The notes under the pieces were generated by a model. It worked only from the letters and a program-made list of their open reading frames with translations, did not search any database and was not told where the DNA came from. Positions 29,682-49,624 of a DNA stretch of 49,625 bases are shown here, in pieces. Position 1 is the first letter of the stretch, and each line of letters starts with the position of its first letter. A program made the translations under genes and the position numbers. Source of the stretch: an archaeon (GTDB lineage: Archaea > Nanobdellota > Nanobdellia > SCGC-AAA011-G17 > GW2011-AR17); the NCBI GenBank assembly GCA_043797705.1, contig JAZDPJ010000023.1:1-49625 (forward strand). The letters are read 5' to 3'.

Positions 29682-29758
29682 ATTTTTCCTCCGTGGGAGC
29701 CCAACCCTGTTTAGGGGTTGGGTTAAGGAGGGAACGCAATGTTTTTTGTTGGCAGTGC

Positions 29759-38970: not shown

Positions 38971-39230
38971 AGTTGTATATGGAAGTCAGCTAGTGCTTCT
39001 GTCTCCTGTTCTTCAACTTCTACTTCATCAACTTTTGATCCTTCTGGTCCTTTTTTGCATGCTTCGATCAATTTATCAATCTGTTCTTCTGTTCCTTGTG
39101 CAACTACTTCTAGTGTTCCGTCTTCTAGGTTTTTTACATATCCTTTCAAGCCTTCCGCTTCTCTTTTAACAAATGCTCTGAAGAATACTCCTTGCACTAT
39201 TCCTTTTATGGTCAGTTTTACTTGTTTCAT
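38967..39230 (-). CDS. acyP: Acylphosphatase
   Basis: G.VQGVFFR, GYVKNLEDG and KGP motifs. Confidence 0.95.
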   Translation of the reverse strand: MKQVKLTIKGIVQGVFFRAFVKREAEGLKGYVKNLEDGTLEVVAQGTEEQIDKLIEACKKGPEGSKVDEVEVEEQETEALADFHIQL

Positions 39231-40201
39231 TTTCTTACAAATTTAGGGTATATTCCTGCTTGCATGAACACTCTCAGTTTTGTGGCTACTATGCCTCTGC
39301 TTTGTGCTAGTATGTTCTGGCTGTTCATCTGTGCTTCTCCTATCGCAACTAGCTCGTCTTTGAGTGTCATTATTGCTACTATGTCTCCTTGGTTGATATT
39401 ATCGTGTAATTTTACTACTCCTGGCACTGATAGTGCTGCTCCGTGGCTTATTGTGTCTACTGCTGTGTCTATTATCCATAGTTTTGGCAGGTGTCCGACG
39501 CCGTTCTCCACTGGTTGTATGGCTCTTCTTATTGCTTTTTCATCTTTCATTTCAAAGGCGTCTTTCAATTCCTGTAATGTGACCCAGTTCTCGTAGTTGA
39601 AAGGCCCTGCTTTTGTTCTTACTAATTCAGCCATATGTGCACCAGTTCCTAATTTCTCTCCTAGGTCGTGTGCGTATTTTCTGATGTATGTTCCTGCTTG
39701 GCATCCTATCTTAAGCAGGATATCTCTCCCAGATATTTCCAGTATTTCAATGTAGTAGATTTCTCTTTCTCTTAGTTGTCTTTTTACTGAGCTCTTTATG
39801 GGCGGTAGTTGCATTATTTTACCGATGAATTCATTTAGAACTTCTCTTATCTTATCTTCTTTTATTTCAGAGTGTAAGTGTATTATTGAGACGTATTCTT
39901 TGCCTGCAGTTAACAGTACTTGTACGATTTTTGTAGCTCTGCCTATTGCTATTGGCAGTACTCCGCTGACATTTGGGTCTAGCGTTCCTGAGTGTCCTGC
40001 TTTTTGGACTTTGAGTATTTTTTTCACATAGTCTGATACTTGATGGGATGTTGGTCCGGATGGTTTGTTTAGATTTACAATGCCGTATTCAAGAATTTTT
40101 TCTACGGATCTTTTTTCAGGTCTGCAGCCGTATCTGCTGTCAGTTTCTGCTTCTCGTTTTATTGCTATCTTCCTTTCTATTTTTTCAAATGGTAGTTTCA
40201 T
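39227..40201 (-). CDS. cbf5: Pseudouridine synthase Cbf5/TruB
   Basis: KPSGPTSHQV, GHSGTLDP and GTYIR motifs plus a PUA domain. Confidence 0.96.
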   Translation of the reverse strand: MKLPFEKIERKIAIKREAETDSRYGCRPEKRSVEKILEYGIVNLNKPSGPTSHQVSDYVKKILKVQKAGHSGTLDPNVSGVLPIAIGRATKIVQVLLTAGKEYVSIIHLHSEIKEDKIREVLNEFIGKIMQLPPIKSSVKRQLREREIYYIEILEISGRDILLKIGCQAGTYIRKYAHDLGEKLGTGAHMAELVRTKAGPFNYENWVTLQELKDAFEMKDEKAIRRAIQPVENGVGHLPKLWIIDTAVDTISHGAALSVPGVVKLHDNINQGDIVAIMTLKDELVAIGEAQMNSQNILAQSRGIVATKLRVFMQAGIYPKFVRK

Positions 40202-40306: not shown

Positions 40307-41956
40307 TTACCTTTTAATCAGGTTAGATAGGAAGTTAATAGCTATTCTTGTTGTGTCTCTTATTCCATTAGCAGTTTCGGTAATTATTCCTTCATCTTCT
40401 TCATATATGTCTTTGAATTCTACAATCATGTTTTCTAAGTTTTTAAGTTCAGATCTTAGGTCTTCTAGTTCTTCTGTAGGTGCTTCCTCTGCTGGTCTTT
40501 TCATAGGCTCTGATCTTTCTATGCATTTATTACCTTTTGAGCATATTTCATCTGGCGCGCATTCTCTGTCTGTAGTGCATTCATCTCCGAGTAGTTTGTC
40601 AAACCATGTTCTATCGACTGGTGCCTCTAGAACTAAACACCTGCCTTTTTCACATCCGCCAGGGCAGTCTGTTAATTCATATTTGTAGCCGTTTCTTGTG
40701 TTGGGATCGCAAGAATATTCTTTTAGTTGATCTCCTTCGCAGGCATCTTCAAATTCTTCTGCAGTGAGGTCTTCTTCCGCGAGTTTTTTCATTCCGTTAT
40801 TATAGACTGATCGTGTTATATCGGGTAGTCCTGGTTTAGTTATCTTAGGTGGTTGTATGTCTGGTATTTCAGGGACAGTAAAACTGGGTATTTCAGGGTC
40901 ATCTAAACTAGGTGTTATTGCTTGTGGTGCCGTATCTAACTCCCTGGGTATTGAGTTAAGGTTGGCTATCGGGTTTCCGGTTATTTTTAGATTTGAATTT
41001 CGAGTTATCAGACTTTCTTTTGGAGTATAAATTACCAGCTTGCCTTTTGTATAAATTGGGTTTGATGCATGTTTGTCACTGTCCATGCAGTATGGTCCTC
41101 CTGTGCATCTTCCTTCTGCGCAGTTCGGGCATGTTACTTCTAGGAATGCTACTCTTGAGGATTCTGCCCAAATCGGGTTTGACAGTCCTATGCATCCGTA
41201 GTTTACTAAAGTTATTTCATCTTCACAGTAGTCTGTAAAGGTATCAAAGAATGCATCTGTTGAGGGGTATTTTCCTTGTACTGTTGATCTTTTTGTAAAG
41301 TCATCTAGTGATGCTCCTTCAGTATCATAGACGCAGGACAGGTCTGCTTTTGGATCAGAAAGTTTTGTCCCTATCCAGATGGTATTGATCTGCATATTGG
41401 CAGGTTGTAATATGTTTCCTGTAGTTATATAGACTTTTGTAGCAAATGTTAGTTTTACTGCATTTTTTCCATTGAGTGTATCGAGTTCTATTGTGTGTTT
41501 GAGTGTTTGTTCATTTTCTTTTGTGTAGAAGTTTATTCCTTCTTTTGTTAGTGATCTTATTAGTTCGGGTTCTCTGTCAAAACTTTCCTGCTCATTTGTG
41601 AAGAAGTAGCTGTCTAATTTTTGGATTTTGGTTTGGTGTATTCTCCAAGTTGTGTATAGCTTGTCTAATCCATCGTTGAAGTCTATTCCTACTGTTATTC
41701 TGTTTGGTGTTGAGCTTTTTATTGTTACATATGCTTTGTTTTCGCCGAAAGTTGTTTCTGCTATGTTCTCCGTGTTTGCGTCTAGTATTCCTTTGACAGC
41801 AATTGGTTCGCCTTCAGTATTTTCATAGAATAGTTTGAACTTTTCAAATGAGGATACTTGTTTTTGTGGGCCTACATCTGCGGCATCATTTTCAGCTACT
41901 GCTAATGGGATCAATAAAAGGAGCCCTATTAGTATTGTGGTGATTGTTTTTTTCAT
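40307..41956 (-). CDS. Secreted Cys-rich protein, paralog of 46900..48510
   Basis: Signal peptide; FFDTFTDYC...LVNYGC...SRVAFLEVTCPNC block shared with the paralog. Confidence 0.75.
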   Translation of the reverse strand: MKKTITTILIGLLLLIPLAVAENDAADVGPQKQVSSFEKFKLFYENTEGEPIAVKGILDANTENIAETTFGENKAYVTIKSSTPNRITVGIDFNDGLDKLYTTWRIHQTKIQKLDSYFFTNEQESFDREPELIRSLTKEGINFYTKENEQTLKHTIELDTLNGKNAVKLTFATKVYITTGNILQPANMQINTIWIGTKLSDPKADLSCVYDTEGASLDDFTKRSTVQGKYPSTDAFFDTFTDYCEDEITLVNYGCIGLSNPIWAESSRVAFLEVTCPNCAEGRCTGGPYCMDSDKHASNPIYTKGKLVIYTPKESLITRNSNLKITGNPIANLNSIPRELDTAPQAITPSLDDPEIPSFTVPEIPDIQPPKITKPGLPDITRSVYNNGMKKLAEEDLTAEEFEDACEGDQLKEYSCDPNTRNGYKYELTDCPGGCEKGRCLVLEAPVDRTWFDKLLGDECTTDRECAPDEICSKGNKCIERSEPMKRPAEEAPTEELEDLRSELKNLENMIVEFKDIYEEDEGIITETANGIRDTTRIAINFLSNLIKR

Positions 41957-41971
41957 TGTTTAGATTGTTTT

Positions 41972-43297
41972 TTAGCCTCGCAGTAATGTTATTACTCTTC
42001 CTGTGATTCCCCAGAAGAATCCTCCAATGGGAATGCCACCAGAGAATGCCCCGTAATCTGGTGCAGTTCCTGATGATTGAACAATCTCTTTACACTCAGT
42101 TGTTCCTGGTTCCACACACCCTTTTGGATCATATACTATATCATCCCCATTTATTGCAACTAACTCTTTACCAGGCATGCATCGCGGAGGTGTCCAACCC
42201 GGGAGGCAAGCAGAAGACCGGCTATCACCTTCGGATGTTGATTCTAGTTGATCATCACTTTCTTCAGTTGTGCCTGTTGTTTCATCTCCACAATCTCTTC
42301 CTGTGCATCCAGTTCCTGAATTCGGTAATCCGTCTCCAGACCTCCCGGTATTTATGTCTGAGGCACAGTTAGCTTTGACAAATTCCCCCTCTTCTCCTCC
42401 GACTTCTTCTCTTAGGCATTTGTTTTTGCATATGATGCTTTGTATTACTATTTCAGCTTTAAGTATTCTGTCTTTTAGTTGTGCTACATTTTGTTTATCA
42501 ATGTCTTGTGTTGGTTCCCAGTTTTCAGGGTCAAAATCTTTAATGTAAAGCTTAGGGTCTCTTCCATCATCTATGCAGCTTTCAGGATCGAATTCTTCTT
42601 CAGTATTAGTTGCACTTGGTATTTCTGCTGGTGTTGGTGCAAGATGTGCTTCGGCTACTGCTTGTTGAGGGGTTCCTGATAGTGCCTGTTTTAATCCTGA
42701 CAATCCAGGCGATGAAGGCTCTGATGTTGCTATTACATCCTCTGGCGGTGTGCCGCTTGTTGTTACTGGAAGAGCATCTAGAGAATAGCCTAACCAGGTA
42801 ACATCATCTTGGCAAGGCCTATCTGCCCAAGGAACATCAGGACCTTTAACAACTATCCCTATGGCATTATCATAATAATAGTTATTATCTTCATTTTGCA
42901 TACTTACTTTAGAACATCCTTGAAGTAGAGAAGAAGTTGGAGAAGAAGGTAAACAAGACTTGTCTGCACAGGCGTAAGTATACCCGATTACGGCTCCAGA
43001 GGTTCCTCCACCCTTCCGTTTCAATGATTGAGGCAGAGGCATTATGCCTGATGGTACCTCTCTAAAAATATATCCTAAAGAAGTATCTCTCTCATATTCC
43101 CTATCTTGAACTGTTACGCATGGAAAATCAACTGTTCCCAGATAATAGTGAACATCTACCTCCTCAGTAATCTCTTTACACCTAAATAATTCTACATAAT
43201 CCTCTGCTCCATAATTCTCTGCTGCATTCACCATTCCTGCAATAGAAATCAAAAATACGCTTATTATTAATAATGTTACAATTCCTCTTTTTTTCAT
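41972..43297 (-). CDS. Secreted Cys-rich protein, paralog of 48515..49624
   Basis: Signal peptide; IQSIICKNKCLREEVG...EFVKANC; C-terminal GITGRVITLLR. Confidence 0.75.
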   Translation of the reverse strand: MKKRGIVTLLIISVFLISIAGMVNAAENYGAEDYVELFRCKEITEEVDVHYYLGTVDFPCVTVQDREYERDTSLGYIFREVPSGIMPLPQSLKRKGGGTSGAVIGYTYACADKSCLPSSPTSSLLQGCSKVSMQNEDNNYYYDNAIGIVVKGPDVPWADRPCQDDVTWLGYSLDALPVTTSGTPPEDVIATSEPSSPGLSGLKQALSGTPQQAVAEAHLAPTPAEIPSATNTEEEFDPESCIDDGRDPKLYIKDFDPENWEPTQDIDKQNVAQLKDRILKAEIVIQSIICKNKCLREEVGGEEGEFVKANCASDINTGRSGDGLPNSGTGCTGRDCGDETTGTTEESDDQLESTSEGDSRSSACLPGWTPPRCMPGKELVAINGDDIVYDPKGCVEPGTTECKEIVQSSGTAPDYGAFSGGIPIGGFFWGITGRVITLLRG

Positions 43298-44278: not shown

Positions 44279-44806
44279 TTATCTTCCAGTGGTCTCTACG
44301 CCGTCTTTTGATTTTCCAGTGTGCCCGATTAGTTCTTTTTTGTGGTCTTTCTTTTCTTCAGCCTTGTGTTTCTTTGCTGGTTTCTTCATTTTTTCTGTTT
44401 TTTCTTGGAATTCTTTTTCCAGAAGTTTTTCTTTCTCTCTTTCTTCTTTCTTTTCTTTGTCTTCTGGTGCTTTTAGTGCGTCTTTTATTTTGTCAGCGAT
44501 TTTTTTAGATTTCTTTTTTGTTCCAGTCACTTTTACTTCTTCTTTTGGTGCGTCAGGTAGTTCTGCGAAAACATAAGTGCGATCTTTTTCTTCTACTTTT
44601 GTTGCTAGTACTTCTATTTTGTGTGGTGGCTTTTTCATGCCTCTTGCCCATATTGCTTGGTTCAGGTATTTTCCTATTTTAACATCCTCTACTTTCATGT
44701 GTTTTTGTAGGAATTGCTTTAGGGCTGCGCCTGCTTTTTTGGATCTCTTGTAGATTGGCACTTTCAGCCATTCTTTTCGTAGTGGGATTATGTATTTTCT
44801 TTCCAT
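44279..44806 (-). CDS. rpl31e: 50S ribosomal protein eL31 with Lys/Glu-rich extension
   Basis: ERKYIIPLR, KRSKKA and LNQAIWARGMKKPP motifs. Start at 44806. Confidence 0.95.
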   Translation of the reverse strand: MERKYIIPLRKEWLKVPIYKRSKKAGAALKQFLQKHMKVEDVKIGKYLNQAIWARGMKKPPHKIEVLATKVEEKDRTYVFAELPDAPKEEVKVTGTKKKSKKIADKIKDALKAPEDKEKKEEREKEKLLEKEFQEKTEKMKKPAKKHKAEEKKDHKKELIGHTGKSKDGVETTGR

Positions 44807-44808
44807 CT

Positions 44809-44982
44809 TTATGCCTTTATGTTTGTTCTTCTCCAGTTTCTTTTTACTGCTGTGTGTCTTCCTGGGTGGACTTTCTTTCCTTTGCCGTATGTTTTTGGGA
44901 CTGTCCAGAATGGTGCCCATTTTCTTTGGTTTAGCTTTTTTGCTAGTCTTAGTTTTTTTGCTAGGTTTGCGAATGTTCCCAT
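44809..44982 (-). CDS. rpl39e: 50S ribosomal protein eL39
   Basis: Not in the ORF track. Translation MGTFANLAKKLRLAKKLNQRKWAPFW...KRNWRRTNIKA; lies between eS19 and eL31. Confidence 0.92.
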   Translation of the reverse strand: MGTFANLAKKLRLAKKLNQRKWAPFWTVPKTYGKGKKVHPGRHTAVKRNWRRTNIKA

Positions 44983-44983
44983 T

Positions 44984-45409
44984 TTATTGTTTCACCGGTT
45001 TTGCTGCTTTTGATAAGAATGATTGTCCTTTTGGTGTTAGTATTCTTCCTTTGTGTACGCCTTTTTCTGTGTATCTTATTAGGCCTGCTTTTTCCAGCTG
45101 TTGTAGTATTGTTCTTAGGACTTTTCCGCCGGCTTTGTATACTCTTTCTGGTTTGTGGCCCATATTCTTTTTTGTGCTGTATTTTGTTCTTAGTTTTGCT
45201 ACGCCTATTGGTCCTGTTAGTGCTATTCTTCTTAGAACTGATGCTGCTCTCATGTGCCACCAGTCATTTTTTGCTGGAGGCCTTTCTTTTCCTGCTCCTG
45301 TTTTGACGAATTTTGCCCATTCTGGCATTTCTAGTTCTTTTACCTTTTTTAGCTCGTCTGCTGCCTTTGATATTACATCTGATGTTTTTGTGTCTCTTAG
45401 TGATACCAT
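44984..45409 (-). CDS. rps19e: 30S ribosomal protein eS19
   Basis: PEWAKFVKTG..KERPP, WWHMRAASVLR and LQQLEKAGL motifs. Confidence 0.97.
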   Translation of the reverse strand: MVSLRDTKTSDVISKAADELKKVKELEMPEWAKFVKTGAGKERPPAKNDWWHMRAASVLRRIALTGPIGVAKLRTKYSTKKNMGHKPERVYKAGGKVLRTILQQLEKAGLIRYTEKGVHKGRILTPKGQSFLSKAAKPVKQ

Positions 45410-45500
45410 TTTCTTTATAGCTTGAAATTTGTGCTTATTTATAAGCTTTGCCTTTTAGAAGCTCTGTCTTGAGGGTTTAGTTGGTATAAGAGAATATGAG

Positions 45501-45572
45501 TGTACTAATGCAAAACATCTAAAATCACTGCAACCGAAGTTACAGCAAAACTAAACATTAAACATCAGTACA
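45501..45572 (-). ncRNA. Candidate hairpin small RNA, copy 1
   Basis: Long G-U-rich stem closed by cUUCGg; TTTAAATA box at 45594-45601. Confidence 0.6.
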
Positions 45573-45652
45573 GGATATCATAAAGTATAATATTATTTAA
45601 AGCTTTCGGTAAGGGTGCATTTCAGGTATTTCAAAGTGTAAGAGAATATGAG

Positions 45653-45724
45653 TGTACTGATGCAAAACATCTAAAATCACTGCAACCGAAGTTACAACAA
45701 AACTAAACATTAAACATCAGTACA
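45653..45724 (-). ncRNA. Candidate hairpin small RNA, copy 2
   Basis: UGUACUGAUG...UUGUAAC-UUCG-GUUGCAG...CAUCAGUACA; TTTAAATA box at 45746-45753. Confidence 0.6.
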
Positions 45725-45905
45725 TAATATCAGATAATAAGATATTATTTAAAGCTTTCGTTAGGATTTTTGAGTGGTATTTTTAGCAGATTTAATCTAC
45801 ATAAACATTATAAAACCTCAAATGAGTTATTACTGCTATGAGAGGGGTGATAGAGTTAATGGACTAAAAGAAAGACTTATAACTTTTACTTCGTTCTTCT
45901 AGGCA

Positions 45906-46781
45906 ATGGAAACCGTTGGAGGGCAGGCAGTTATGGAGGGCGTGATGATGCGCTCAAAAGACACAGTTGTCACTGCTGTTCGTGATCCTAATGGAAAGAT
46001 TGTGTATAAAAAAGATAAGGTGAAGAGCCTTACAAAGAAACCCCCTTTCAAATGGCCTTTTCTTCGGGGCATTATCTCATTATATGAGACTTTAGTTATT
46101 GGTATGAAGAGTCTAAATTATTCTGCTGATGTTGCTATGCATGATGGCAGGAAGGTTGAGTCTACAAAGAAGGAGTGGGTTTTCATGGCTTTCTCTGTTG
46201 TTCTTTCTTTGGGGTTGGCGATTGCTATTTTCAAGTTTATCCCTTTGGCTTTGACTCAGTTTGCTTCTGGTTTTAGTTCAGTTTTTGGTAATCGTTTTGT
46301 TTTTAATATAGTTGAAGGTGTTTTGAAGCTTGGTATGTTCATTGGTTATATTGTTTTGATAGGTCAGATGAAGGATATCAGGAGGGTTTTTCAGTATCAT
46401 GGTGCGGAGCATAAGGCTGTTAATTGCTATGAGGCTGGTAAGCCTTTGACTGTTGAAGCTGCTAAGACATTCTCCACTGTTAATCCTCGCTGTGGCACTA
46501 GTTTCTTGCTGTTCGTGATACTGGTTAGCATTCTTGTTTACATTGTTATTCCTTTGGATTTTTCTTTTTGGGTTAAGTTAGGATTAAGACTTTTACTGCT
46601 TCCGGTGATTGCAGGTGTTTCTTATGAGGTCTTGAAGCTGAGTGCGAAGTATCCTAAGAATAGCGTATTCAAAGCTATTAGTGCTCCAGGGCTTTGGGTT
46701 CAGAGGCTTACTACAAAGGAGCCTGATGATAGGCAGTTGGAAGTGGCTCTGTTTTCTTTGAGAAAGGCTGTTAAGAATTAG
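45906..46781 (+). CDS. DUF1385 (YqhQ-like) membrane protein
   Basis: GGQAVMEGVMMR, FQYHGAEHK, PRCGTSF and Q.LTTKEP motifs. Confidence 0.92.
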   Translation: METVGGQAVMEGVMMRSKDTVVTAVRDPNGKIVYKKDKVKSLTKKPPFKWPFLRGIISLYETLVIGMKSLNYSADVAMHDGRKVESTKKEWVFMAFSVVLSLGLAIAIFKFIPLALTQFASGFSSVFGNRFVFNIVEGVLKLGMFIGYIVLIGQMKDIRRVFQYHGAEHKAVNCYEAGKPLTVEAAKTFSTVNPRCGTSFLLFVILVSILVYIVIPLDFSFWVKLGLRLLLLPVIAGVSYEVLKLSAKYPKNSVFKAISAPGLWVQRLTTKEPDDRQLEVALFSLRKAVKN

Positions 46782-46800: not shown

Positions 46801-46910
46801 GGCTCTGGTGCATTCCTATTTAGAAAGGTATATTTTCCTTCAAAATACCTACCGATGTCGCTATGAAGATACTATGGTGCAACCCTCTGAAAAAGACTTC
46901 TAGAATAGCC
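46801..46910. mobile_element. Second MITE copy, opposite orientation, with internal 31-bp inversion
   Basis: 46801-46874 is the reverse complement of 35491-35564; 46875-46905 is a direct copy of 35460-35490. Confidence 0.8.
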
Positions 46911-48510
46911 TAGCAGCAAAGCTTCTAATGCCTGTACTGACTCTTGAGGCTACGCTTGGGGCTTCAACAGAGGTTATTTCTCTATCAGATGTTTCCCATA
47001 GCCCGCCCCACCAGCTTTCTTCAACTGGTTCGTATGCATTTTCAAGAAGGGTTATCATATCTCGTAATTCTATTAGCTCATCTCTGACTTGTGATCCTTC
47101 TATAACAGATTCTTCTTCCACTTCTTCAATTACTTCTATTGGTTCACCTGTGCATGCGCCTTCTACGCAGTTTCCTGAATCACATGGTGCTGTTGTTATT
47201 GTGTATCCTTCAGGAGCATTAGCATCACATTTATATTCAATTAGCTCCCCGTCAGCACAACTGTCCACATGGGTTTCTGTTACAGCAACTAGTTTTATCC
47301 CACTTTCATAATCACCTATATTTGTTAGTGCTCTTGTTCTTGGTTCGTATATTTTCAGTGTTCCTTTGAGTACTGTTTGGTCTCTGAGGGGTGCATATTT
47401 GTCTGTCTCAATGCAGTATGGACCTTCTTCGCATGCTCCGTCTGCGCAGTTCGGGCAGGTTACTTCGAGGAATGCGACTCGTGAGGTTTCTTTCCAGTTA
47501 GTGTTTAGCCCTACGCACCCGTAGTTCACTAGTGTTGTTTCATCTTTGCAGTAGTCTGTGAATGTGTCGAAGAACTTGGTTGCTGAGGGGTAGTATCCTT
47601 CAACTGATGATGCTCTTGTGAAATCATCTAATGATCCAGTTGCTCCTATGTTGTATTTGCAGGCTTTTTCGTCAGGGCTTATGTCTGCAAGTTTTGTTGT
47701 TATCCAAATCGTGTCTGTGTCTTTGAGTATGTTTCCCTTTGCTACTTGGAATTGTTCTAGGGAGGATATTTTGATTGCATTGATTTCAGGGTGGCCAGGC
47801 ATTGGAGCGAGCTCTATTTTGTAGTCTATGCTGCCTAAGGTGAGAGTTAATGCATTGTCATCTGCTATGAAATCGAATAGTGATTCTTCTGAAGTTTCAA
47901 TTTTTTCTTCTAGTAGGGCTTGTATGTTTGTGTGGGATATGTTCCAGGGTATGTGCAGCTTTTCTGTTTTGTCTGCGCTTTCGAAGTTTATTCCTAGTGT
48001 TATCTGTGATGGTGTTGAGCTTCTTATTTTTATGTAGGCGTTATTTGCCCCGTATGTTATTTGTGCTAGAAAATCTGTTGTTGCGTCTACTGATTTTGCA
48101 AATTGTGCGTCCTCATCGTAGAATACTTTAAATTTTTTTTCTTCAAAGCTTCCTAGTACTTTCTCAAAGGATTTTGTCAGGGTGAGTGTTGCTTTTCCAG
48201 TTTCAAATCCTTCATAGGTTGCTGTTATCACTGTTAGTCCGTCTGATTCATAGGAGTCACCGATTTCAATAGGATTGTCATTTATTGTTAGGTCTCCTGT
48301 ACTCGGGTCAAATGTTAATTCAATGGCAGTATCGCAGTATGTGAAGCTTTTATCCTGGTCTACGATTAAGGAGTAGGAGTCACATATCTCGCTTAGGTCA
48401 TCTTCAGTTTGTGTTGTGTCAGTATTTCCATCAGTTATGGTATCTACGGCTATCGCTAAAGGAAGTAGCAGAAGGAGTCCGATAATTAGTATTATGATTT
48501 TTCTTTCCAT
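46900..48510 (-). CDS. Secreted Cys-rich protein, paralog of 40307..41956
   Basis: Signal peptide and shared Cys-rich block; the stop codon lies within the MITE copy. Confidence 0.75.
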   Translation of the reverse strand: MERKIIILIIGLLLLLPLAIAVDTITDGNTDTTQTEDDLSEICDSYSLIVDQDKSFTYCDTAIELTFDPSTGDLTINDNPIEIGDSYESDGLTVITATYEGFETGKATLTLTKSFEKVLGSFEEKKFKVFYDEDAQFAKSVDATTDFLAQITYGANNAYIKIRSSTPSQITLGINFESADKTEKLHIPWNISHTNIQALLEEKIETSEESLFDFIADDNALTLTLGSIDYKIELAPMPGHPEINAIKISSLEQFQVAKGNILKDTDTIWITTKLADISPDEKACKYNIGATGSLDDFTRASSVEGYYPSATKFFDTFTDYCKDETTLVNYGCVGLNTNWKETSRVAFLEVTCPNCADGACEEGPYCIETDKYAPLRDQTVLKGTLKIYEPRTRALTNIGDYESGIKLVAVTETHVDSCADGELIEYKCDANAPEGYTITTAPCDSGNCVEGACTGEPIEVIEEVEEESVIEGSQVRDELIELRDMITLLENAYEPVEESWWGGLWETSDREITSVEAPSVASRVSTGIRSFAARLF

Positions 48511-48514
48511 TTTT

Positions 48515-49624
48515 CTATCTCAATAATGATACTACCCTCCCTGTGACCATGCCAATAAAGCTCGCTATCGGTGATTGTTTAGGTGTAAACGCCCCCGGCA
48601 CTATTACTTTTTCTTGGGCAACAGAAGTAAGTGCAGCAGGTATTGAAGCTGCATCAGGTATTGAAGTTCCGGCCGGATGAGTTCCTGCTGTTGCTGTGCT
48701 TTTGCAGTTAGCTTCGACAAATTCATCTCCGACTTCTTCTCTCAAGCAGCTGTTTCTGCAGATAATGTCTTGCACCATTGCTTTGGAAGATTGTATTCTT
48801 GATATGATTTGGCTGTCTGATGGTTCTCCAGGCATAACTTCTGGTAGCGGCCATTTCTGATGTTTCAATAGTAATTGCTGCTGTTTTAGTTGTGATTCAT
48901 ATCCATCATCAATGCATGCCATATTAGAGGGAGTAGCAGGAGTTAAAGTAGAAAGTTGCTCGCAGTTGTTAGAAATAAATAGTAAATCTTGCTGTGCTGA
49001 TTGCGGTCTTAGGCATTTGTTCTTGCATATGATGCTTTGTATTTTTGATTCAAATGAAAGTATGTGCCCTCTTGCTTGAGCTGCTGTAAGGGAGGATTCT
49101 ATGTTTGGAGGCCAAGTAGGTGGTGCTGCGCTGCTTGTTGGTCCGTATGTATCATCTACGCATCCTTCTAGTGTTGGAGTCACATCTGTTTGGTCAAGTG
49201 CTCCGCTATCAGATCCTCCTCCATTTTGATCGGTTTGAACAAAATCGGGCAGTCGTAGCAAGTATTGTTTCGGTGATTCTGTTGGTGGGCTTGTTAGTAT
49301 GATTCCCATGACATTTGTAACAGTTGAGCCAGCATCTATACCTTGAGGGGCATTGCCTTGAATAGATAAAGTCCAATATTTGGTATAGCTCGTAATTGAA
49401 AGTTCACAGGAAGACCAAGGGTAAGGTTTGGCTGCAGTTATTTTTCGGGCAGTATAATCCACAGTTAGCCCTGTTGAGACTATTATTGCTTCATCGCAAT
49501 ACTCAAAGTCTAAAACAGAAACTGGCTGACCCCTACTGTCTTCTGGTATAGTTGCAGGTGTTTGCTTGAATACCCATCCTATTGGATCTCCTGAAGGCCC
49601 TTGAGGCCTCAATGGCACGACATC
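48515..49624 (-). CDS. Cys-rich protein, paralog of 41972..43297 (5' end outside the window)
   Basis: Frame is open to the window edge; two IIC.N.CLR repeats; C-terminal GMVTGRVVSLLR. Confidence 0.75.
   Translation of the reverse strand, partial: DVVPLRPQGPSGDPIGWVFKQTPATIPEDSRGQPVSVLDFEYCDEAIIVSTGLTVDYTARKITAAKPYPWSSCELSITSYTKYWTLSIQGNAPQGIDAGSTVTNVMGIILTSPPTESPKQYLLRLPDFVQTDQNGGGSDSGALDQTDVTPTLEGCVDDTYGPTSSAAPPTWPPNIESSLTAAQARGHILSFESKIQSIICKNKCLRPQSAQQDLLFISNNCEQLSTLTPATPSNMACIDDGYESQLKQQQLLLKHQKWPLPEVMPGEPSDSQIISRIQSSKAMVQDIICRNSCLREEVGDEFVEANCKSTATAGTHPAGTSIPDAASIPAALTSVAQEKVIVPGAFTPKQSPIASFIGMVTGRVVSLLR

Follow-up and report, generated by a model that had tools for sequence, protein, structure and literature searches.

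Twin hairpins upstream of rps19e in a reduced archaeal genome: candidate sibling genes for a lineage-restricted small RNA

Base-pairing small RNAs of bacteria that occur as siblings are typically encoded by tandem near-identical genes with their own promoters, and PrrF1 and PrrF2 are small RNAs of this kind. An RNA hairpin that starts at +1 has a geometry known to protect 5' ends. For the archaeal H/ACA guides, one structural account (PMC4652768) places a K-turn or K-loop, built on tandem sheared G-A pairs, in or above the upper stem and some 10 stacked layers higher than the pocket. The pocket itself is an internal loop whose 3' side is a single strand 5-6 nt long, the lower stem has 7-9 bp, and the ACA lies 14-16 nt from the pocket's closing pair. 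Some archaeal C/D box sRNAs have their own promoter and a purine start, and the tRNA genes of Nanoarchaeum equitans are described as terminated at a polypyrimidine (T) stretch, according to a second report (PMC3491384). The small RNAs of DPANN-type archaea are almost unexplored. A literature search for RNA-seq in these organisms returned Nanoarchaeum equitans alone, and the available part of what is published for that species contains no hairpin like those described here.

The locus lies in a window of 49,625 nucleotides, the whole stretch of DNA analysed, which is contig C3 of a genome of 785,491 bases in 38 contigs (38% G+C, 94% complete). A gap of 496 nt between rps19e (44984-45409, minus strand; Pfam Ribosomal_S19e, E 5.6e-47) and a divergent DUF1385 gene (45906-46781, plus strand) houses a direct repeat on the minus strand, with two copies of 128 nt at 45636-45763 and 45484-45611 that are 91% identical and 152 nt apart. 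Both units have the same order, going from the motif CGAAAGCTTTAAATA through a spacer of 21 nt and a hairpin of 72 nt to a pyrimidine-rich tail. The distal unit consists of the BRE/TATA promoter P1 (45746-45760), a spacer (45725-45745) that is the diverged part of the unit, hairpin 1 (45653-45724; 30 bp with a cUUCGg loop) and the tail CUCAUAUUCUCUUACAC (45636-45652). The proximal unit consists of promoter P2 (45594-45608), spacer (45573-45593), hairpin 2 (45501-45572; also 30 bp) and tail (45484-45500), and the two tails share the sequence CUCAUAUUCUCUUAYAC. Downstream of the units, rps19e is the next gene and has a promoter P3 of its own, AAAGCTTATAAATA (45436-45449, minus strand), of a motif type that also stands before tRNA genes. 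The repeat with its 152-bp spacing, the layout of both units and the nearby genes rps19e and cbf5 (39227-40201, minus strand; 5.3 kb away) are all as an earlier note on this DNA had described them. The twin hairpins are a real and well-built candidate for a new small RNA, and with slightly better than even confidence the locus can be read as two sibling genes for one structured small RNA that is restricted to this lineage.

Several neighbouring genes have features of their own. Four large ORFs near the locus, at 46900-48510, 41972-43297, 40307-41956 and 48515-49618 (all on the minus strand; 536, 441, 549 and 367 aa), have no Pfam match, and the first two are also without a match in an NCBIfam search. 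The L31e gene (44279-44920, minus strand) has a product of 213 aa in which the L31e domain covers only residues 40-111 to 40-117. The one public RNA run found, X12, covers 44400-44668 of the window, outside the hairpin locus, and its contig skips 44425-44547 inside the L31e gene, where a repeat is flagged.

The promoter core of the two units is shared with genes of known function. The 13-mer AAAGCTTTAAATA occurs five times in the window when up to one mismatch is allowed, versus 0.56 occurrences expected, and none of 100 shuffles reaches five. Twenty-four occurrences were found in the genome, and in 12 of these an ATG-started ORF of at least 50 aa begins 21-25 nt after the motif. A TTG-started ORF follows at 19-26 nt in 3/24, and another 3/24 have a long leader with a Shine-Dalgarno-like GGAGG. 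The sites without an ORF (6/24) belong to tRNA-Phe, the 16S rRNA operon, both hairpins and two others; the copies before the 16S rRNA operon and tRNA-Phe are exact, and tRNA genes have like motifs 23-28 nt ahead of their 5' ends. The hairpin begins 21 nt past the motif in both units, which is within the motif-to-ATG pattern (21-25 nt) of the 12 leaderless genes, and transcription is therefore expected to start at the hairpin base. The predicted starts are purines at +22 or +24, namely G45723 or A45721 for hairpin 1 and G45571 or A45569 for hairpin 2, which are among the first bases of the stem. This prediction, calibrated on the genome itself, agrees with the 5' ends near 45572 and 45724 that had been proposed, and promoter and start site are spaced as elsewhere in this genome, as would be expected of promoter-driven small RNA genes on the minus strand. 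The spacing calibration is the strongest new argument that each hairpin may head its own transcript.

The same motif touches on two other features of this genome. Since AAAGCTTTAAATA is followed by an ATG 21-25 nt on in 12/24 cases, with few genes having long GGAGG leaders, half of the strong promoter motifs stand at leaderless spacing and many mRNAs should be leaderless. A promoter-like motif followed by a 162-aa ORF is also contained in a partial, weaker match to archaeal 23S rRNA on contig C11 (positions 87-2110; 845 bits, model positions 1423-2973). The full copy is on contig C15, and the C11 stretch may represent either a divergent second copy or an ORF-bearing rRNA intron.

Each hairpin has an outer stem of 11 bp, a UU/UU loop, a middle stem of 9 bp, a second UU/UU loop, and an apical stem of 10 bp capped by UUCG. 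On the minus strand the minimum free energy is -28.8 kcal/mol (z -6.12) for hairpin 1 and -32.0 kcal/mol (z -7.70) for hairpin 2, and none of 200 dinucleotide shuffles reaches the stability of either one. The plus-strand folds are not comparable, with z of -2.33 for hairpin 1 and +0.32 for hairpin 2. The 30 pairs in each hairpin comprise 6 G-C, 15 A-U and 9 G-U. Every one of the nine non-Watson-Crick pairs is a G-U on the minus strand and would read A-C, a mismatch, on the plus strand, so that the wobble pairs work on the minus strand only, as had been noticed from the letters. If a DNA palindrome decayed neutrally, the chance of finding 9/9 wobbles on one strand would be 0.004 (two-sided).

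This strand asymmetry stands out in the genome. A fold scan of 6,999 intergenic 80-nt windows (283 segments, 91,091 nt) was made, and among the 45 most stable intergenic loci listed, hairpin 2 (-24.1 kcal/mol) and hairpin 1 (-16.5 kcal/mol) have the largest difference between strands; the rest of this set consists largely of parts of rRNA and tRNA genes. A scan of genic and intergenic sequence alike, which covered 40,506 windows on contigs C1-C8, puts hairpin 2 about 16th by raw energy; it alone among the top 40 windows has less than 40% G+C. No further hairpin RNA gene of the same type was found among the best 45 loci of the intergenic scan. An AT-rich candidate on contig C37 (21425-21491) is a 67-nt palindrome made of two back-to-back promoter motifs, with GAAAAGCTTATAAG on both strands, and it looks like a divergent promoter pair rather than an RNA gene. 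Short matches on contig C21 were set aside as T-rich antisense of coding sequence.

Two other structured elements were seen in these scans. Positions 1900-2160 of contig C2 (L242:601-861) form an ORF-free, G-rich element of about 260 nt with several perfect hairpins. Its z is -9.3 for the minus and -5.7 for the plus strand, and Rfam has nothing that matches it (best E 0.64); it is a second unexplained structured element of this genome. A GC-rich nested hairpin with stems of 11 bp and 8 bp lies at 29685-29735 of the window on the plus strand (z -3.98 plus, -2.03 minus), under overlapping ORFs of 134-136 aa on both strands.

The divergence between the units is patchy. Unit-to-unit differences number 1/21 in the BRE/TATA region, 7/18 in the spacer (7/21 over the full spacer), 2/72 in the hairpin, 1/17 in the tail and 15/24 beyond the tail. 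The claim that the spacers between promoter and hairpin have diverged is thus borne out (7/18 versus 2/72 hairpin differences; Fisher p = 1.2e-4). The claim that the hairpins differ in a structure-preserving way stands in its letter, since there are exactly two differences and pairing is kept in both (G-C/G-U and C-G/U-G, each one-sided), but it carries almost no weight alone. Of the pairs, 28/30 are invariant and 0/30 are changed on both sides, so none is compensatory, and 39/60 of the possible transitions in paired bases would preserve pairing. Two of two differences keeping their pairs has a chance of about 0.4 and is therefore not evidence by itself. The patchy divergence is better evidence than the pair-keeping differences. 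A diverged island between two conserved blocks makes a single gene-conversion tract hard to invoke, and the pattern fits what selection on promoter, hairpin and tail might leave. The near-identity of the hairpins could still be owed in part to gene conversion rather than to selection.

The locus has no relatives in the sequences searched. Neither BLAST of the unit nor a covariance model built from the two copies (R1) found a third copy in the organism's own genome, and BLAST against 40 relatives returned only promoter-like pieces of at most 49 nt. The search of related genomes with a covariance model, which the earlier note had suggested, gave R1 matches in 0/36 genomes of the family, 0/150 of the order and 0/150 of the phylum, in samples that overlap in part and with stricter filters for sets of more than 40 genomes. 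Among 80 metagenome loci fetched with Rps19e, the best R1 match has E 1.3. The nearest Rps19e in the genomes and metagenome contigs searched is 64-65% identical, and close relatives are absent from these sets. BLAST against phages and plasmids returned only chance pieces of about 30 nt. The pattern of the apical 19-mer has one chance match, in a spirochaete, and none in viral contigs. The outer-stem pattern matches 85 stretches in genome contigs, where about 300 are expected by chance, and 18 in viral contigs. When 98 of these loci (the 80 listed from genomes and the 18 viral ones) were rescored with R1, the top scores of 42 and 32 bits belonged to GC-rich bacterial palindromes and are inflated, because the loci had been preselected by pattern. 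With no homolog beyond the locus there is no covariation. The proposal of an undescribed small RNA family is supported in part. There is no known-family match, and the own-promoter geometry fits small RNA genes; the word "family" is not yet supported, as no homolog was found outside the locus.

Strains of the same organism are represented in other data sets. Three further studies (runs X2, X3 and X6) have DNA contigs in which pieces of the locus occur with 0 differences. A 406-nt contig of run X3 joins position 45460 to 45643 through 26 other letters, and it has 15/110 differences to the distal unit and 1/270 in rps19e. This contig is from a strain with a single diverged unit, in which the rps19e promoter is kept.

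The known classes of stable RNA do not account for the hairpins. An Infernal search of the window against Rfam 15 gave 0 matches at the gathering threshold, so no known family was recognised, and the sub-threshold matches have E of 5 and 8.5 (SNORD28 with 16.8 bits and mir-21 with 13.6 bits, of which mir-21, at E 5, is the best weak match). ARAGORN found 0 tRNA or tmRNA genes in the window. SRP RNA, 5S, RNase P RNA, 16S and 23S are all encoded elsewhere in the genome, and the hairpin is therefore no stand-in for one of the standard stable RNAs; mimicry of rRNA is not apparent either, with only 7-10-mer matches to the organism's stable RNAs. A C/D box sRNA was rejected, as there is no C box (RUGAUGA) with a 3' D box (CUGA), and the 5' CUGAUGU and the 3' CAUYAGUACA simply form Watson-Crick pairs with each other. 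Dicer-like processing was also rejected, since neither RNase III nor Piwi/Argonaute was found in the genome. The hairpin RNA is not an H/ACA or C/D guide, the former being weighed below.

An H/ACA-type pseudouridylation guide working with Cbf5-Nop10, an option raised in the earlier note, is highly improbable. The hairpin is of the right size (about 70 nt), its basal stem of 8-11 bp ends in ACA, Cbf5 is encoded 5.3 kb away and Nop10 is in the genome, and a start of transcription at A45721 would leave the ACA unpaired, although in the full hairpin it is paired with the 5' UGU. The features that define the class are missing, however. There are no tandem G-A pairs in either arm, and hence no K-turn or K-loop, which agrees with the earlier remark that no clear K-turn was to be seen; the 5' arm has no GA facing the GA dinucleotides of the 3' arm, and the apical 10-bp stem is fully paired. 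There is also no pocket, as both the MFE and the centroid folds contain only the two 2 x 2 U-U loops. The ACA is 10 nt from the first U-U loop, and opening the middle helix would bring the distance to 21 nt, versus the 14-16 nt given in the structural account (PMC4652768). When the A-U/G-U middle helix was taken as the pocket and scanned for bipartite pairing around a U in 16S and 23S, the best match had 12 pairs; 142 of 200 shuffled guides did better and 28 did equally well. The complementarity to rRNA is thus no better than that of shuffled guides, with 170/200 shuffled guide pairs reaching at least 12. Gar1 was not found in this 94% complete genome, by a model that also misses it in 1/4 archaeal control genomes, and the H/ACA RNA of the DPANN archaeon N. 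equitans is reported to retain K-turns (PMC3491384). The genome thus encodes Cbf5 and Nop10, Gar1 was not found, and no H/ACA guide RNA is known for it. A small hydrophobic peptide resembling a type I toxin, encoded by a 37-aa ORF at 45597-45710 on the minus strand, is barely credible. It is the sole ORF of at least 30 aa at the locus and its N-terminal half is hydrophobic, but its start codon is buried in the stem, and in unit 2 the frame stops after 17 aa through a C>T change that preserves the base pair. A peptide is unlikely because one copy bears this pair-preserving stop codon; the conserved peptide frame that had been named as speaking against an RNA was not found, the frame being 37 aa in one unit versus 17 aa in the other. 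A phmmer search of 1.84 billion representatives returned one match, an unrelated 600-aa repeat protein, which is weak evidence because small ORFs are rarely called in that library.

The main rival to sibling genes places the hairpins in the 5' leaders of long transcripts of the rps19e-rpl31e operon, which would start at P1 or P2 and read through; the hairpin at the 5' end would then stabilise the mRNA or act as a ribosomal-protein operator. This is unlikely but deserves serious attention. P1, P2 and P3 are co-oriented with spacings of 152 and 157 nt, the hairpin starts at the predicted +1 in the 5'-protecting geometry, and the one-unit strain retains its unit immediately upstream of rps19e. 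No oligo-T terminator lies between the hairpins and rps19e: in the 15-nt tail of either unit T-runs reach no more than 2, so transcription may run on into the next unit and rps19e. Of 31 stable-RNA genes of the organism, 8 have a T-run of at least 4 in the first 15 nt of the trailer, and the trailers are only slightly T-richer than background. The tails have 12/15 pyrimidines, and about 12% of random 15-mers of the genome reach at least 11. What speaks against a leader is the promoter of rps19e itself, a consensus one placed for leaderless transcription 26 nt ahead of the ATG and kept in the one-unit strain. Such a hairpin is also absent upstream of rps19e in 29 loci of the family, where an open frame of at least 70 aa lies within 165 nt of the start in 23/29, four have a longer gap and two are too short; and its likeness to the organism's own rRNA is limited to 7-10-mers. 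It is very doubtful that the locus is functionless, that is, recently duplicated palindromic DNA with a chance copy of a promoter. Its confinement to one lineage, the adjacency of its two copies and the existence of a one-copy strain would suit such an origin, but all nine wobble pairs fall on one strand, conservation is patchy with a diverged spacer amid two conserved blocks, and there is no dispersal of the kind seen for mobile elements. A trans-acting antisense regulator, in which the hairpin would do no more than stabilise the RNA and the CU-rich tail would base-pair with purine-rich sites of mRNAs, such as those for ribosome binding or initiation, is distinctly improbable as well. The tail is conserved (1/17) whereas the sequence that follows has diverged (15/24), it is unpaired in the MFE fold, and by analogy the tandem near-identical genes with their own promoters would resemble the sibling small RNAs of bacteria. 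The best non-self duplex of the tail in a genome scan, at -20.9 kcal/mol, however falls within an ORF of contig C7 rather than at a start codon, and none of the 18 non-self matches with at most 2 mismatches was recognised by eye as a start site.

Under the preferred reading of two sibling small RNA genes, each copy would have a minus-strand transcript of its own, driven by the consensus BRE/TATA promoter of that unit, a strong promoter of the stable-RNA type. The start would fall 22-24 nt past the TATA box, within the opening bases of the hairpin, and the 5' end would then be buried in the 11-bp stem. The RNA would form an almost uninterrupted rod, its 30 pairs interspersed with two tandem U-U loops and closed by a cUUCGg cap, and a conserved, unpaired, pyrimidine-rich tail of about 14-17 nt would follow the rod. 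It is most likely a stable stand-alone RNA, in which the rod may both protect the RNA and serve as its recognition body, probably for a protein, and the tail may be either a signal for the 3' end or a short pairing site. A protein-bound role is favoured over antisense action by the tail because the whole helix is conserved in sequence and leaves almost no single-stranded surface.

A bolder proposal is that the locus represents a new class of archaeal RNA, an abundant double-stranded rod resembling a pre-miRNA that is made from rRNA-grade promoters and, instead of guiding modification or working as antisense, serves as a dsRNA decoy or ligand. This is speculative and has a small chance of being right. 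With equally little confidence, the protein it would target might be of the cell itself, of a host or of a virus, the organism being a genome-reduced symbiotic archaeon. The locus may, on the same tentative footing, be fast-evolving between strains, as the one-unit allele differs at 15/110 positions versus 1/270 in the gene.

At present the value of the locus is that of a clean candidate and not of a discovery, for it is one orphan locus in one uncultivated lineage. If it is transcribed, it would offer a well-defined test object, a short and very stable RNA with a promoter core shared with the rRNA operon. It would also be an RNA outside the two guide-RNA classes that dominate archaeal small RNAs, and would indicate that even a 0.79-Mb genome invests in a lineage-specific regulatory or structural RNA.

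Among described systems, the archaeal H/ACA sRNAs, both the single-hairpin kind and the 159-nt two-hairpin RNA of Nanoarchaeum equitans, are similar in having a hairpin of about 70 nt, an ACA and a TATA promoter; unlike them, the hairpins here have no K-turn, no pocket, no rRNA target above shuffles and no Rfam match. Archaeal C/D box sRNAs are likewise small, some with their own promoter and a purine start, but have the box pair that is absent here. Leaders of ribosomal-protein operons and 5'-terminal stabiliser hairpins share the position directly upstream of a ribosomal-protein gene and a hairpin at the predicted +1, and they differ in that rps19e here has its own promoter of the leaderless type, the hairpin has no likeness to rRNA and it is absent from the 29 related loci. 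Eukaryotic pre-miRNA-like hairpins are comparable in shape, being some 70 nt long with G-U pairs and small symmetric mismatches in a stem of about 33 layers, although no RNase III or Argonaute was found in this genome and the mir-21 score is 13.6 bits versus a gathering score of 52. PrrF1 and PrrF2 differ from the present pair, which has an archaeal promoter, no intrinsic terminator, no recognised seed or target and an RNA that is nearly all in one helix, but they are like it in being near-identical genes that stand side by side, each with its own promoter.
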